A program made the translations under genes and the position numbers. Shown in pieces: positions 1 to 27,338 of a stretch of DNA of 64,000 bases. The DNA is from an uncultured Segetibacter sp. (GTDB lineage Bacteria > Bacteroidota > Bacteroidia > Chitinophagales > Chitinophagaceae): positions 22,598 through 86,597 of the forward strand of contig CAXUMK010000001.1 in the NCBI GenBank assembly GCA_964251885.1. Direction: 5' to 3'. The stretch's first letter is position 1, and each line of letters begins with the position of its first letter. Below the pieces are notes generated by a model. It was given only the letters and a program-made list of their open reading frames with translations, was not told where the DNA came from and did not search any database.

Positions 1-137
1 GCCAGTTCACTGCTGCCAAAACTAATGTCCCGGTTAAGCAGTTCCGAAAGGGAACTTTTTGTAACAGTGGGAGACACAGGTTTTACCTGCCTGGTTGTTG
101 TTTTTGGTTCGTAACGGCTAAGGTCTATCGAAGGCAT
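1..137 (-). CDS. 5' end of a CDS running off the window; possibly the GspF/PilC-type platform protein of the adjacent secretion cluster
   Basis: ATG at 137-135 (minus), 4 nt after the stop of the upstream pseudopilin gene. The frame MPSIDLSRYEPKTTTRQVKPVSPTVTKSSLSELLNRDISFGSSELA stays open to the window edge. Function is guessed from position only: the platform protein is the one core component not seen elsewhere in the cluster. Confidence 0.3.
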   Translation of the reverse strand, partial: MPSIDLSRYEPKTTTRQVKPVSPTVTKSSLSELLNRDISFGSSEL

Positions 138-141
138 AGTT

Positions 142-681
142 TTAGGGTTTAATAGCCATCAGGCTTTCTGCACTGTATTTTTTTTTGTAGTGAAAAGGGA
201 TTGTTATATTTTGTAAACTGATAGAAAAAGTGATCTCGTCGATAAGCGGCCTTATATCACTTTCAGTACCTGTCCCGGCCGCTTCGCTTGCCGCCTGTCC
301 ATTATCTTCCACGGACCCGCTTATAGCCTTTCCTTCAAAATAAACCTGAAAAGGGGACGGATCCACTTTAAACGTGTCTATTACACTGCTTATGCGTACC
401 ACTTGTTCCAGCCCGATCTGGTAATGAACCGTTAGTTCCCCATCCTGTATAATGATACCGCCCTGTTCCTGTTCCACGAAAGACGCCTTTTCAAAGTCCC
501 GCCTTAACAGTTCGTCCAAACGTAAAACAATAGCCATCTGTTGGTTTTTTTCTGTAAAACCCAGCCATGACCTGGTAATTATACCGTAAGCAGAATAGGT
601 CATGGCAACGACAATAGCGGCAACGAGCATCGATATGGTTACTTCCATAATGGTAAAAGCAGGAACTGTTGTTTTTTTCAT
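142..681 (-). CDS. Prepilin-type N-terminal domain protein (minor pseudopilin/pilin-like)
   Basis: N-terminus is MKKTTVPA|FTIMEVTISMLVAAIVVAM. It has a short basic leader, Glu at +5 and about 20 hydrophobic residues, which is a class III prepilin signal. It overlaps the upstream gene by 4 nt. Confidence 0.75.
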   Translation of the reverse strand: MKKTTVPAFTIMEVTISMLVAAIVVAMTYSAYGIITRSWLGFTEKNQQMAIVLRLDELLRRDFEKASFVEQEQGGIIIQDGELTVHYQIGLEQVVRISSVIDTFKVDPSPFQVYFEGKAISGSVEDNGQAASEAAGTGTESDIRPLIDEITFSISLQNITIPFHYKKKYSAESLMAIKP

Positions 682-1064
682 GGGCTTACACTTTCTGTTA
701 CGGGCCTGATCTTTTTGACTGAGTCGAGCGGCACGCCTTCTTCATCAAAGGCAGTCAGGCTAACCTGCTGCAAACCGTTGTTTCCCTTATAGGCATCCAC
801 CTGTTGCTCTACTCTTAGTTCGCCCTGGTTAAAGTTTTGGCTACTTACCGAGCTCCCGCTGTCAGCACGAAGGGCAAATTCGGAAAGCACGGCCCTTGCT
901 TTGAGCTTTCTGATTGAAAGGGACAGTTTGAGGACATTGGTATAAATTGTAAGGGCAGTCGTAAAAACAACAACGATCAATACCATTGATACCACAACTT
1001 CCAGCAAAGTGGAGGCCCTTAGCTTTACAGTTAAGCTGCTTACCTTCGGTTCGCTTCCAGCCAT
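678..1064 (-). CDS. Prepilin-type N-terminal domain protein (minor pseudopilin/pilin-like)
   Basis: N-terminus reads ...VKLRA|STLLEVVVSMVLIVVVFTTAL, with Glu at +5 followed by a hydrophobic helix. It is translationally coupled to its neighbours. Confidence 0.7.
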   Translation of the reverse strand: MAGSEPKVSSLTVKLRASTLLEVVVSMVLIVVVFTTALTIYTNVLKLSLSIRKLKARAVLSEFALRADSGSSVSSQNFNQGELRVEQQVDAYKGNNGLQQVSLTAFDEEGVPLDSVKKIRPVTESVSP

Positions 1065-24570: not shown

Positions 24571-26004
24571 TTAATAATTGATTAGCAGGGCGTATATTTC
24601 CTCCAGGGAGGTCGCACCGTCCCGAAAAAGGTTAAAGGCATTTTCGGCAAGCGTACTGATGCCCCGCTCTTTTAATAAGCCTTGTATATTCGCGTTGCCG
24701 ATTTTAATTTGTGCCGATAGTTCAAAGTCTATTGGTATAATTTCATACACCGCCTTTCGCCCTCTGTATCCTGTATAATAGCACTGTTCACAGCCTACAG
24801 GTACATAGTGTTCCTTGACTTTGCTGTAGGGCCTGAACTGCCTCGGGTAGAGCTTCTCATCTAAAGGTTGTACTTGTTTGCAGTTTGGGCAAAGCAGGCG
24901 CACCAAACGCTGCGCGGCAGTAGTGTTAAGCGTACTGGCAACTAAAAAGGGCGGTATGCCCATATCTATTAGCCGGGAGACAGTTCCCCATGCAGAATTG
25001 GTATGTATGGTTGAAAGTACCAGGTGCCCGGTTAAAGCAGCGCGAATGGCCATGTTTGCCGTTTCCGGGTCACGGATTTCCCCTACCATAATCACATCCG
25101 GGTCCTGGCGTAAAAAAGTACGCAGGGCTGCGGCAAAGTTTAATCCGATTGATTCCTTAAGCTGCACCTGGTTTACCCCTTCCAGTGTATATTCAACCGG
25201 GTCCTCGATCGTTATAATATTTCTCGTTTCCTGGTTAAGCAGTTTTAGTGTAGCGTAAAGCGTTGTTGTTTTACCTGAACCGGTTGGCCCGCTGATCAGC
25301 AGGATACCATTTGGCCGCTTCACGCCCTGCAGGTAGTTTTCCAAATCTTCCGGGGAAAAACCAAGGCTGTTCAGATCAATTTCCGTAGCATCATTATTAA
25401 GCAGCCTCAATACAACTTTTTCGCCATGCAGCGTTGGCAGGACTGATACCCGTATATCGAATTGTTGAGGGCCGTGTTTAAAATTGATCCGGCCATCCTG
25501 AGGCAAACGCTTTTCGGAAATATCCAGGTTCGATAAAATCTTGATCTTATTGATGAGCGCAGGATAAAGTTCCTTTTGCAGCAGGTAACGCTCCACCAGC
25601 ATCCCGTCGATACGGATACGGACACGGCACCTGGCCTCATAGCTTTCGATATGGATATCACTGCTTTTTAAACTTTTGGCTTCTGAAATTAGGTTGGCCA
25701 AAAAATCGTCGGCATTTTTTGTTTGGCTTAGCTGGATATTGCCCTGGACGGCGTTGTCCTTAATATAATATTTTGAGAGTAAACGGGCAACCTGGCTATC
25801 GGGCAAAGCAATTAATTCGACATTTGTCCCAAGTAAAATCTCAAGTTCGCTAATGAGGGCAATAGGGTCTACCTGCTCTGAATAGTACAGCAGCAGCTTA
25901 TTCGGCTCTTTTCCTTTCGGTAAGACCCTGTAGTGCCAGGCCTGGCCTTTTGTCAGCAGGTGGACATGCTCAGTTATTAAACTAATCTCCTTGGACAAGT
26001 TCAT
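24571..26004 (-). CDS. GspE/PilB-family secretion ATPase
   Basis: Walker A is LISGPTGSGKTTTLYA. Asp/His boxes are DPDVIMVGEIRD and TGHLVLSTIHTN. A tetracysteine motif is present (CPNCK...GCEQCYYTGYRGR). Confidence 0.92.
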   Translation of the reverse strand: MNLSKEISLITEHVHLLTKGQAWHYRVLPKGKEPNKLLLYYSEQVDPIALISELEILLGTNVELIALPDSQVARLLSKYYIKDNAVQGNIQLSQTKNADDFLANLISEAKSLKSSDIHIESYEARCRVRIRIDGMLVERYLLQKELYPALINKIKILSNLDISEKRLPQDGRINFKHGPQQFDIRVSVLPTLHGEKVVLRLLNNDATEIDLNSLGFSPEDLENYLQGVKRPNGILLISGPTGSGKTTTLYATLKLLNQETRNIITIEDPVEYTLEGVNQVQLKESIGLNFAAALRTFLRQDPDVIMVGEIRDPETANMAIRAALTGHLVLSTIHTNSAWGTVSRLIDMGIPPFLVASTLNTTAAQRLVRLLCPNCKQVQPLDEKLYPRQFRPYSKVKEHYVPVGCEQCYYTGYRGRKAVYEIIPIDFELSAQIKIGNANIQGLLKERGISTLAENAFNLFRDGATSLEEIYALLINY

Positions 26005-26525
26005 AGGTTAAAATTTGACATTTCTATATTTTTATACCAAAAGCCCATACCAGGGGCTATCCAAGTAGCAACTAAAAATACCGCAAGCAGCAAGGCCTGT
26101 ATCCCCGCCAGCGGGATTTCCTGGCTACTGTTTTTACTGATTGCCTGCCAAACTAACCATGACAGGACAATCAGGACCAGGCTGGCCAGGTAGAAAAGAA
26201 TGAAAGCCATCAATGGGAAATAAACACCTATACATATTAACAGGAGCACATCGCCCCAGCCTAAAAGGCCATCGGTGAGGTTTACCCATCGCCTCTCCTT
26301 CAGGCAAAAATAAAGCGTTAAAAGCAGGAATTGCGGTAGTAAAAACAGCATGTCAGCAAACCAGTTTTGTAAGAGAATAGTTATTGGGGCATGTTGCAAT
26401 AGCTGTTCCCCCAAAAATGCACCAATGAGTAACGGAAACCAGAACCAGTAAACGGCGCGGCTTTTAATATCTTGGAAAAATATACCGCCCAGCAATAAAA
26501 TGATCAATGCCCGGAGAATAAACAT
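26001..26525 (-). CDS. Short prepilin peptidase (A24 family, peptidase-only, no methyltransferase domain)
   Basis: 174 aa and polytopic. The first Asp context is FFQDIKSRAV and the second is in the GxGD motif (LLGWGDVLLL). It overlaps gspE by 4 nt. Confidence 0.75.
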   Translation of the reverse strand: MFILRALIILLLGGIFFQDIKSRAVYWFWFPLLIGAFLGEQLLQHAPITILLQNWFADMLFLLPQFLLLTLYFCLKERRWVNLTDGLLGWGDVLLLICIGVYFPLMAFILFYLASLVLIVLSWLVWQAISKNSSQEIPLAGIQALLLAVFLVATWIAPGMGFWYKNIEMSNFNL

Positions 26526-26957
26526 TTAATCCGGTGTTACTTCTTTCAGCGTTTTGTCCTGGTCTATTTCCCAAACGTTAAATATACCGTTACCGTTAAA
26601 GTCGGCCACAGCGGTAGCACGGGCAGTAAACCCGGCATTGGTCGCCTGCGTAATTTCTATCCGGTAATTTGCCCGCCCGTCCTTACCGTCTGTACTTAAC
26701 TTTTCCTGGATAAAGCCCAGCTCCGTCAGGTCTTTGCTGTACTTAGAATGCTCATAGAAGTAATTCTTCTCCAAAGTGTTGATATGCTCCAATTGGACTT
26801 TGGCCTCGGTATTTTTGGCCTTCGTAATTAATGGCAACAGATTTGGCAGTGCCAGCAGTACCAGGATACCAATAATAACCAGCACCACAAGGATCTCTGT
26901 CAGCGTGTAGGCCTTGACCTTTTTAGTAAACCTATTTAAAGTATGTTTGTAACTCAT
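26526..26957 (-). CDS. Major prepilin/pseudopilin (class III signal)
   Basis: MSYKHTLNRFTKKVKA|YTLTEILVVLVIIGILVLLALPNLL has Glu at +5 and the typical pilin alpha1 helix. The ORF track extends to 27023, but the ATG at 26957 gives a canonical leader. It is the first gene of the co-directional cluster. Confidence 0.8.
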   Translation of the reverse strand: MSYKHTLNRFTKKVKAYTLTEILVVLVIIGILVLLALPNLLPLITKAKNTEAKVQLEHINTLEKNYFYEHSKYSKDLTELGFIQEKLSTDGKDGRANYRIEITQATNAGFTARATAVADFNGNGIFNVWEIDQDKTLKEVTPD

Positions 26958-27338
26958 GCAAAAATCTTTTTCTGAAGGATAATTAGATAGCCCTTGAGTT
27001 AAATTTTTACTTGACTTTATCAAAAAAAGTTACATTTGTTTTGATGGTTTATTCACTTTTCAGATTAAAACTTCAATTATCGGAAAAGACTGAAAGCGTA
27101 GGTTGCTATAGGACTTATAGTATTAACTATTTTTTAAGAATACCAAACTTCATCTACTTTTAGGCTGCGTTCATTAGGAAAGGCTCAAGTGTCACTATAA
27201 CCGCGTTTTTAGGTAGTATAGGTGGAAAGTTGATAAAGGGTTATAGGTGGAGAATTCGCTGATATTAGGTGATAAAATAAGTATACAGAAATAATTAAAG
27301 GAATATACTGCTTTATTGGCCTTTAACGACATTACTTA

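Follow-up and report, generated by a model that had tools for sequence, protein, structure and literature searches.

Genes for a TcB-like protein, an Rhs toxin and tail-fibre-like paralogs are linked to a type IV filament/type II secretion-like machine in Segetibacter and other Bacteroidota

We analysed a 64,000-nucleotide stretch of DNA from an uncultured Segetibacter sp. (contig CAXUMK010000001.1, positions 22,598 to 86,597; hereafter the window). Positions 1-27023 of the window hold the genes of a machine of the type IV filament/type II secretion system (T2SS)-like kind, in two modules. Module A (26957-20777) runs from the major pilin gene (pilA) to a gene for a GspM/PilO-like protein, and module B (4600-1) begins with a lipoprotein gene and leaves the window within the gene for the GspF/PilC platform protein. 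A block of about 16 kb separates the two modules and encodes a TcB-like protein (T), an Rhs toxin (R) and five tail-fibre-like paralogs. Apart from one insertion sequence (IS), every gene between 26957 and 1 is encoded on the minus strand, those of the block included. A first-pass annotation of the window, made from the letters alone, had described a machine with a co-directional accessory block, and this description is confirmed by hidden Markov model (HMM) matches for the secretin, the ATPase and the pilin and by the identification of T, R and the five fibre genes. Coordinates are collected in Table 1.

Some of the machine's parts can be recognized by sequence family. The secretin, the ATPase (T2SSE) and the pilin (N_methyl), all named in the first-pass annotation, have HMM matches of their own, and the GspF start is recognized through an ortholog, being 60% identical to residues 1-40 of a protein (locus L001) that matches T2SSF with an E-value of 2e-44. 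The Peptidase_A24 match of the predicted prepilin peptidase is weak, and no HMM match was obtained for the proteins labelled L-, M-, C- and K-like; for the GspL-, GspM- and GspC-like proteins, which match nothing in Pfam or NCBIfam, the labels stand for size, topology and position only. A profile search of PDB sequences with the GspL-like family likewise found no match. The pilin just reaches the gathering score of ComP_DUS, and its matches to PilA_Myxo, ComGC and GspG all fall under their own cut-offs; the GspG match reaches 35.9 bits where its cut-off is 88.85, with PilA_Myxo and ComGC scoring equal or higher. The ATPase scores 496 bits as GspE and 495 bits as PilB, both under the equivalog cut-offs. 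No ATPase paralog, and specifically no PilT-type retraction ATPase, is found in the whole 64-kb window, as the first-pass annotation had noted for PilT. The secretin is 65-69% identical to proteins annotated as GspD or PilQ in Pedobacter, Mucilaginibacter and Daejeonella. Its N-terminal region of about 270 residues, ahead of the Pfam STN/N0 match, appears by eye to contain two additional STN/N0-like repeats, an architecture typical neither of GspD nor of PilQ.

The machine shares its genes and their order (pilin, peptidase, ATPase, secretin, C/L/M-like proteins, minor pilins and GspF) with the putative T2SS of Cytophaga hutchinsonii (chu_3191-3202), for which Phep_1100-1112 of Pedobacter and Fjoh_0611-0622 are listed as orthologs (PMC5553014); the orthology with the window runs through the listed Pedobacter cluster. 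Genetic work on this machine exists for C. hutchinsonii only; mutants there are impaired in cellulose use and in the presentation of outer-membrane proteins, and no direct substrate of the machine was identified (PMC5553014). No link to Rhs or fibre genes is reported there, whereas the window adds candidate cargo genes. Denise et al. (2019; PMC6668835) found that the "so-called T2SS" of Bacteroidetes always clusters with the type IVa pili (T4aP), away from the T2SS, and they pointed to the "exciting possibility" that a novel secretion system was derived from T4aP independently. Because they place the Cytophaga-type system with T4aP, we do not file the machine as a canonical T2SS, although some features of one are present: a secretin, a single GspE-class ATPase with no PilT in the window, and GspF (45 codons of it). 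By gene content and order we assign the machine to the Cytophaga type of the Bacteroidetes "so-called T2SS", derived from T4aP.

The block opens, next to module A, with T. By HMM the only recognizable part of T is a terminal YD repeat. Its AlphaFold2 (AF2) model (pLDDT 88, pTM 0.88) finds its best Foldseek matches in YenB (4igl_A, 5kis_A, 9c4k_P) and TcdB2-TccC3, with E-values of about 1e-17 and query TM-scores (TMq) of 0.39-0.45, whereas against the Rhs proteins of type VI secretion systems (T6SS) TMq is only about 0.12. In its predicted structure T is therefore nearest to the TcB components, and the first-pass label "TcB-like" is borne out by fold. The start codon of R, at 17480, lies 28 nt past the end of T. 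R has a weak match to the metalloprotease LegP, and a DPxG-type autoproteolysis motif (NIDPDGM) can be read from the sequence ahead of the tip. A toxin tip followed by an immunity gene, together with an orphan tip and immunity gene that share the core end, is the layout of Rhs polymorphic toxins; the immunity genes are assigned by position. The putative immunity protein of R has a signal peptide, which would fit action of the HEIFH zincin-like tip in the periplasm or outside the cell, while the small protein of the orphan module (11951-12304) has none.

The GC content of the R core is 0.575 and that of the R tip 0.36, compared with 0.447 for T and 0.453 for the machine. Across 37 species the difference between R and the machine ranges from -0.08 to +0.19, and because of this span we consider horizontal exchange of R probable; the pattern suggests that R cores beside resident T genes are often replaced horizontally.

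Signal-peptide-like sequences can be read at the start of T, R and the fibre proteins, and likewise in the homologs of T and R. The expectation that the block encodes only Sec-signal proteins or their immunities is thus correct for T, R and the fibres, but the block also carries a plus-strand IS transposase, an avidin-family open reading frame (ORF) and Rhs remnants. The avidin-family ORF lies amid the orphan Rhs remnants and has no obvious signal peptide. Known routes for proteins of this kind were considered. Pfam and NCBIfam scans of the locus found no PAAR, VgrG or other T6SS gene, and the same libraries gave no match to a type IX secretion system (T9SS) C-terminal sorting domain in T, R or the fibres; the C-terminus of R is occupied by the toxin. 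There is no ORF of TcA size in the window, and no such family recurs among the approximately 170 loci described below. The T9SS, T6SS and Tc-A routes were rejected on these grounds.

The five fibre paralogs share a conserved C-terminal domain that ends in a long helix, and vary in their N-terminal part. The family is large, with more than 2700 homologs. The monomer model has a pLDDT of 75, and its Foldseek matches are the Bdellovibrio MAT fibres (Bd2133; E-value 8e-6) and phage tail fibre/S74 proteins (3e-7), with TM-scores of at most 0.4; because these scores are low, the fibre fold predicted for the paralogs is only moderately supported. Matches to PHROG tail fibre profiles are weak (E-values from 2e-7 to 1e-3). 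A tblastn search of phage genomes with a fibre protein found no match, suggesting that the fibres are not recent phage genes.

Table 1. Genes and gene remnants of the machine and of the block between its two modules (positions in the window)
Feature	Position	Strand	Basis
Major pilin/pseudopilin (module A)	26526..26957	-	N_methyl and ComP_DUS
Short polytopic prepilin-peptidase-like protein	26001..26525	-	Weak Peptidase_A24 (E 1e-3, under cut-off); position kept in 82 loci
Sole assembly ATPase, GspE/PilB class	24571..26004	-	T2SSE, E 1e-127
Secretin	22599..24560	-	PF00263, E 1.4e-34; STN/N0, E 1.6e-12
GspL-like protein	21301..22521	-	Cytoplasmic domain, transmembrane segment, periplasmic domain; topology and position; kept in 88 loci
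GspM/PilO-like bitopic protein	20777..21298	-	Topology and position only; kept in 90 loci
T, TcB-like half-cocoon protein, 948 aa from likely start, signal peptide	17509..20355	-	AF2 and Foldseek
R, DUF6443-Rhs (TcC-like) polymorphic toxin, signal peptide, C-terminal HEIFH zincin-like tip	14013..17480	-	DUF6443, E 1.8e-44; RHS_repeat; Rhs_assc_core, E 4e-15
Putative immunity protein, 193 aa, signal peptide	13445..14026	-	Overlaps R stop codon; no family match
Orphan Rhs C-terminal module (core end and different tip) with 117-aa putative immunity gene	11951..13427	-	84% identity to R 812-965; Rhs_assc_core, E 6e-16
Rhs core remnant	11239..11472	-	40% identity to R residues 772-843
Avidin-family ORF	10738..11214	-	Avidin, E 1.2e-25
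Fifth fibre paralog, frameshifted pseudogene	9586..10338	-	C-terminal domain split over two frames (9903-9724, 9701-9585)
Two fibre paralogs, 297 and 210 aa	7740..9319	-	Paralogy
IS transposase, DDE_Tnp_1/DDE_Tnp_1_3	6717..7595	+	Pfam, E 1.3e-22; sits between two fibre genes
Two tail-fibre-like paralogs, 270 and 304 aa, signal peptides, conserved C-terminal domain and coiled coil	4738..6472	-	Paralogy; AF2/Foldseek
Lipoprotein with Ig/FN3-like repeats, first module B gene	3638..4600	-	Lipobox ...WVSC; weak Ig_Rha78A_N; kept in 36 loci
Bitopic 178-aa protein, GspC/PilP-like by position only	3099..3635	-	No HMM match; kept in 44 loci
Secreted MORN-repeat protein	2356..3102	-	MORN_2, E 2.7e-9; signal peptide; kept in 46 loci
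Large GspK-like minor pilin, 434 aa	1040..2344	-	Hydrophobic pilin-like N-terminus without Glu5, as in GspK; no HMM match; kept in 47 loci
Minor pilin-like protein, 128 aa	678..1064	-	N-terminus RA/STLLEV (slash marks the predicted cleavage site) with Glu5; weak ComGE, E 1.6e-3; kept in module B
Minor pilin-like protein, 179 aa	142..681	-	Prepilin-type N-terminus PA/FTIMEV, Glu5; no HMM match; kept in 44 loci
GspF/PilC platform gene, 5' end, leaves window	1..137	-	First 45 codons (137-3)

To place the arrangement in a wider context, we mapped all proteins of the window onto 80 loci, each covering 10 kb on either side of a secretin ortholog in a collection with one genome per species (two assemblies contribute two loci each). 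T/R genes lie within 10 kb in 53 of the 80 loci (Sphingobacteriaceae), and in 21 they flank module A on both sides; counting fibres as well, the figure rises to 67. The synteny comparison that the first-pass annotation had called for, namely whether Rhs and TcB-like genes recur next to this secretin, therefore has a positive answer, and further cases come from Flavobacterium and Marinoscillum. Past the L/M genes, the first recognizable gene is that for T in 21 loci, a fibre gene in 22 and one of module B in 14, and 34% of the non-machine DNA of these loci could be aligned to T, R or fibre genes. Orientation is also conserved: relative to module A, T is co-oriented in 51 cases and opposed in 4, R in 44 and 3, and the fibres in 158 and 11, or about 93% co-oriented.

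Module A is intact in essentially all of the 80 loci, while module B may be ahead of it, behind it, inverted or more than 10 kb away. Because the relative placement of A and B varies in this way, the two-module layout is ancestral rather than the result of a recent split, and the first-pass notion of a machine split by the block does not hold, as the modules behave as separable units. The T, R and fibre genes vary in placement from genome to genome as well, occurring ahead of A, in the gap between A and B, past B, or on both sides. Since the arrangements differ among genomes, the proximity has been kept or re-created repeatedly and not inherited from a single insertion. In the two closest relatives, with secretins 85-91% identical to that of the window, T directly follows the GspM-like gene. 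In some other relatives (L064, L065 and L030) A and B are contiguous with nothing between them, yet the pattern that would have spoken against the pairing, with fused halves free of cargo and Rhs genes at unrelated loci, is not general among the 80. Module A is duplicated in Pedobacter sp. HMWF019 (L003, L071) and in P. planticolens (L026, L048); of the two copies in HMWF019, one adjoins module B, and the second, flanked by T-R, lacks it within 10 kb.

The linkage can also be approached from the toxin. We examined 79 metagenome loci centred on DUF6443 and found T ahead of R in 74 of them, for which reason we regard T-R as an obligate pair. Fibre genes are present in 39 of the 79, commonly directly upstream (fibre-T-R). 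Machine genes occur in 22 of the 79; among the 32 loci of 18 kb or more, 12 have them. By our own estimate, which assumes one machine locus and a genome size of several Mb, chance would bring the two together within 10 kb in about 0.5% of cases. Clustering of every ORF of at least 90 aa in about 170 loci showed recurrence only for the families of the machine, T, R and the fibres, and neither a further exporter nor general mobile-element cargo recurred; integrases are present in 6 loci. That these families alone recur argues against a generic integration hot spot.

Outside the Sphingobacteriia, the linkage is found in one case each in the Flavobacteriia and the Cytophagia. In Flavobacterium sp. 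ENC, module A is divergent from a module B that holds an embedded fibre gene and ends in GspF-T-R. In Marinoscillum (Cytophagia), four fibre genes are divergent from module A and are followed by a lipoprotein gene and a T homolog. The fibres also have other partners. In Flavobacterium pectinovorum (L171, 147-11878) a fibre array (five segments by tblastn) follows a WapI-family gene and a 2085-aa SpvB/FG-GAP/RHS fusion that has a signal peptide, so that fibre arrays accompany more than one Rhs architecture. In a Flammeovirgaceae genome (L168, 8035-9954) a 639-aa outer-membrane beta-barrel protein is encoded between four fibre genes and T-R, and may be an alternative outer-membrane partner.

Beyond module A, the window carries a CTnDOT-like conjugative transposon (29958 to about 60000). 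Its genes include an RteC fragment and a full RteC, a primase-like protein, a relaxase, TraG, TraM, a coupling protein, a 1868-aa SNF2 helicase and an M23-ArdC-MPTase fusion. Genes of a conjugative transposon abut pilA in the window and in both closest relatives (L085, L087). The window contains no tRNA that could have served as an integration site.

Several known systems share part of this arrangement. T and R resemble the BC subcomplex of Tc toxins (YenB/YenC, TcdB2-TccC3) in the predicted TcB-like fold of T, in the RHS repeats, Rhs core and variable C-terminal toxin that R has in common with TcC, and in the B-then-C gene order with tight spacing. They differ in that T is about 950 aa long compared with about 1450 aa for TcB, that both carry Sec signal peptides, and that the window has no TcA. 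Canonical Tc toxins lack signal peptides, and Yersinia entomophaga releases them by lysis. The immunity genes and orphan tips, moreover, point to an antibacterial rather than an insecticidal use. The T6SS Rhs effectors (RhsA, Tse5, RhsP, Tre23-Rhs) likewise have an Rhs cocoon, an Rhs-associated core, a polymorphic tip with its immunity protein, and orphan modules. In the window, however, PAAR, VgrG and T6SS genes are lacking, the N-terminus of R is a signal peptide with DUF6443, the cocoon is spread over two genes, and T fits the T6SS structures poorly, as its low TMq indicates. The first-pass annotation had treated Rhs toxins as normally tied to T6SS or else of the Tc type, overlooking WapA of Bacillus subtilis, a Sec-dependent Rhs/YD toxin with a cognate immunity protein. 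WapA shares with R the N-terminal Sec signal and the immunity protein, and it is a WapI-family gene that follows the SpvB-RHS fusion in F. pectinovorum; its host, though, is a monoderm with no outer membrane, and it is a single polypeptide with no filament machine.

Substrate genes beside a T2SS have precedent in the pulA-pul locus of Klebsiella and the sslE/yghJ-gsp locus of E. coli. A dedicated substrate gene next to the machine is what these loci have in common with the window, but their substrates are enzymes or lipoproteins and not Rhs capsules or fibre arrays, and the machines are canonical proteobacterial T2SS. The Bdellovibrio MAT and phage tail fibres, which are the top fold matches of the fibre paralogs, also occur as arrays of several paralogs with one variable and one conserved end; the fibres of the window differ in being conserved at the C-terminus and variable N-terminally, and in being short (210-304 aa). 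A search of the literature, with most subscription journals outside its reach, found nothing that mentions DUF6443, nothing that ties Rhs or fibre genes to the Bacteroidota machine, and nothing on Sec- or T2SS-dependent Rhs proteins or on TcB/TcC with tail fibres. The machine and the Rhs/BC toxins are thus of known kinds, and what is new is their pairing, the Sec-dependent BC architecture without TcA, and the fibre arrays that accompany it.

The association of these genes leads us to propose that the machine exports or displays Sec-delivered antibacterial toxins made of fibres, T and R, a proposal that we regard as evenly balanced between right and wrong. Under it, Sec would carry the fibres (as trimeric adhesins), T and R into the periplasm; because all of these have signal peptides, a further step across the outer membrane would be needed. 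T and R would form a BC-type capsule around the autoproteolytically released C-terminal toxin, here the zincin-like HEIFH tip. The pilin/ATPase/secretin machine would then carry the fibres and the capsule over the outer membrane, or display them there, and the variable N-terminal parts of the fibres would recognize the target, replacing the absent TcA. The immunity genes would protect siblings, and the purpose of the whole would be interbacterial antagonism, as the adjacent immunity genes and the orphan toxin/immunity modules suggest. The parts themselves, the TcB-like fold of T, the signal peptides and the co-oriented linkage are what the analysis establishes, whereas export by the machine, assembly of T with R, targeting by the fibres and entry into the target cell are inferred. 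The proposal is partly supported by the comparison of genomes: the pairing is real, conserved and specific, and it is from this linkage that we infer export through the secretin.

A number of observations weigh against such a role. Thirteen of the 80 machine loci have neither T/R nor fibre genes nearby, and mutants of the C. hutchinsonii machine have an unchanged extracellular protein profile (PMC5553014). The gap between the last machine gene and T is typically 200-400 nt or more (in the window, 421 nt), which makes a separate promoter for T probable, and the regions ahead of pilA, T and the genes for the lipoprotein and the fibres, searched for a shared motif, gave nothing but one A-rich 9-mer. 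An assembled BC cocoon may exceed the width of the secretin lumens solved so far. The DUF6443-centred metagenome loci are partly non-independent, as several share one contig. Toxin modules are also found away from the machine. Within 10 kb of the four fibre genes and T-R in the Flammeovirgaceae genome mentioned above there is no machine gene, and the same is true of Flagellimonas, where four fibre genes and T-R lie next to an integrase. T-R stands alone in Tenacibaculum, and in Chitinophaga it has one fibre gene about 6 kb upstream, again with no machine within 10 kb. On (mega)plasmids of Hymenobacter and Chondrinema (NZ_CP049908.1, NZ_CP111045.1), T accompanies DUF6443 proteins of great length, 1982 and 2388 aa, with no machine within 12 kb. 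Because T-R and fibre-T-R modules occur with no machine genes nearby, adjacency to the machine is not obligatory. Judged by these comparisons, the deepest conserved unit appears to be the fibres with the BC-type Rhs capsule, and it is strongly enriched beside the machine without being confined to that place.

The same observations can be read as cooperation without export. In that case the machine would be a pilus for contact, adhesion or DNA uptake, and the toxin modules would have been co-selected for the same cell-cell encounter, in which killing goes with adhesion or with DNA uptake, leaving the cell by vesicles, by lysis or through another translocon. The system does branch with T4aP and not with T2SS (PMC6668835). 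In addition, the pilin barely attains the ComP_DUS gathering score, the ATPase is equally good as PilB and as GspE, T usually has its own upstream gap, fibre-T-R cassettes stand alone elsewhere, plasmids included, and one Flammeovirgaceae locus offers a beta-barrel outer-membrane protein gene between the fibres and T. The retraction ATPase of such a pilus is absent from the window, however, and no alternative exporter recurs near T/R. The polymorphic toxins of well-studied systems, moreover, typically cluster with their own secretion machine, be it T6SS, contact-dependent inhibition (CDI) or the type VII secretion system (T7SS), and we think it unlikely that the machine and the toxins cooperate in this way only. 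To a similar degree we doubt that the toxin cassettes and fibre arrays are mobile hitch-hikers with no functional tie to the machine, its flanks being recombination hot spots. This would account for the IS, the pseudogene and the orphan modules within the block, for an R core richer in GC than the machine (0.575 and 0.45) and the wide range of this difference among species, for the conjugative transposon that adjoins the upstream side of pilA in both the window and its two closest relatives, and for T-R pairs on plasmids and beside integrases. A hot spot should nevertheless collect varied cargo, and here only fibres, T and R recur, with integrases in just 6 loci; nor would it be expected to yield 93% co-orientation, or linkage in three classes with layouts as different as a fibre gene within module B and T directly past GspF.

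A recent one-off insertion that split a contiguous T2SS operon in this strain would explain the contiguous A and B modules of L064, L065 and L030 and the IS and GC mosaic in the block. It is very improbable, and the comparison of loci has largely refuted it: A and B are placed differently with respect to each other over the 80 loci, 43 of these have T or fibres past the L/M genes, and the closest relatives also have T directly past the GspM-like gene. The GC mosaic was rejected as proof of such an event, given that R departs from the machine in both directions across species. The first-pass annotation had offered insertion of the accessory block into an old operon as its alternative, and this is right insofar as the block is dynamic, with its IS, orphan modules and mosaic GC, but it does not account for an association that is conserved across genomes.

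Returning to export or display by the machine, a further and more tentative claim, which we put forward as possible but would not expect to hold, is that Bacteroidota use their T4aP-derived "T2SS" as a dedicated device to export or display a new class of antibacterial particle, a Sec-dependent BC-type Rhs capsule without TcA that is aimed by interchangeable fibre arrays. In either form, the fibres, T and R are the first concrete candidate cargo for a machine of soil Bacteroidota that has no known direct substrate. If the proposal is true, Rhs toxins of diderms would have a two-step route out of the cell, through Sec and then through a secretin, and a Tc-like capsule would be able to work without TcA. 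The soil and rhizosphere Bacteroidota would then possess a widespread interbacterial weapon besides T6SSiii and T9SS.

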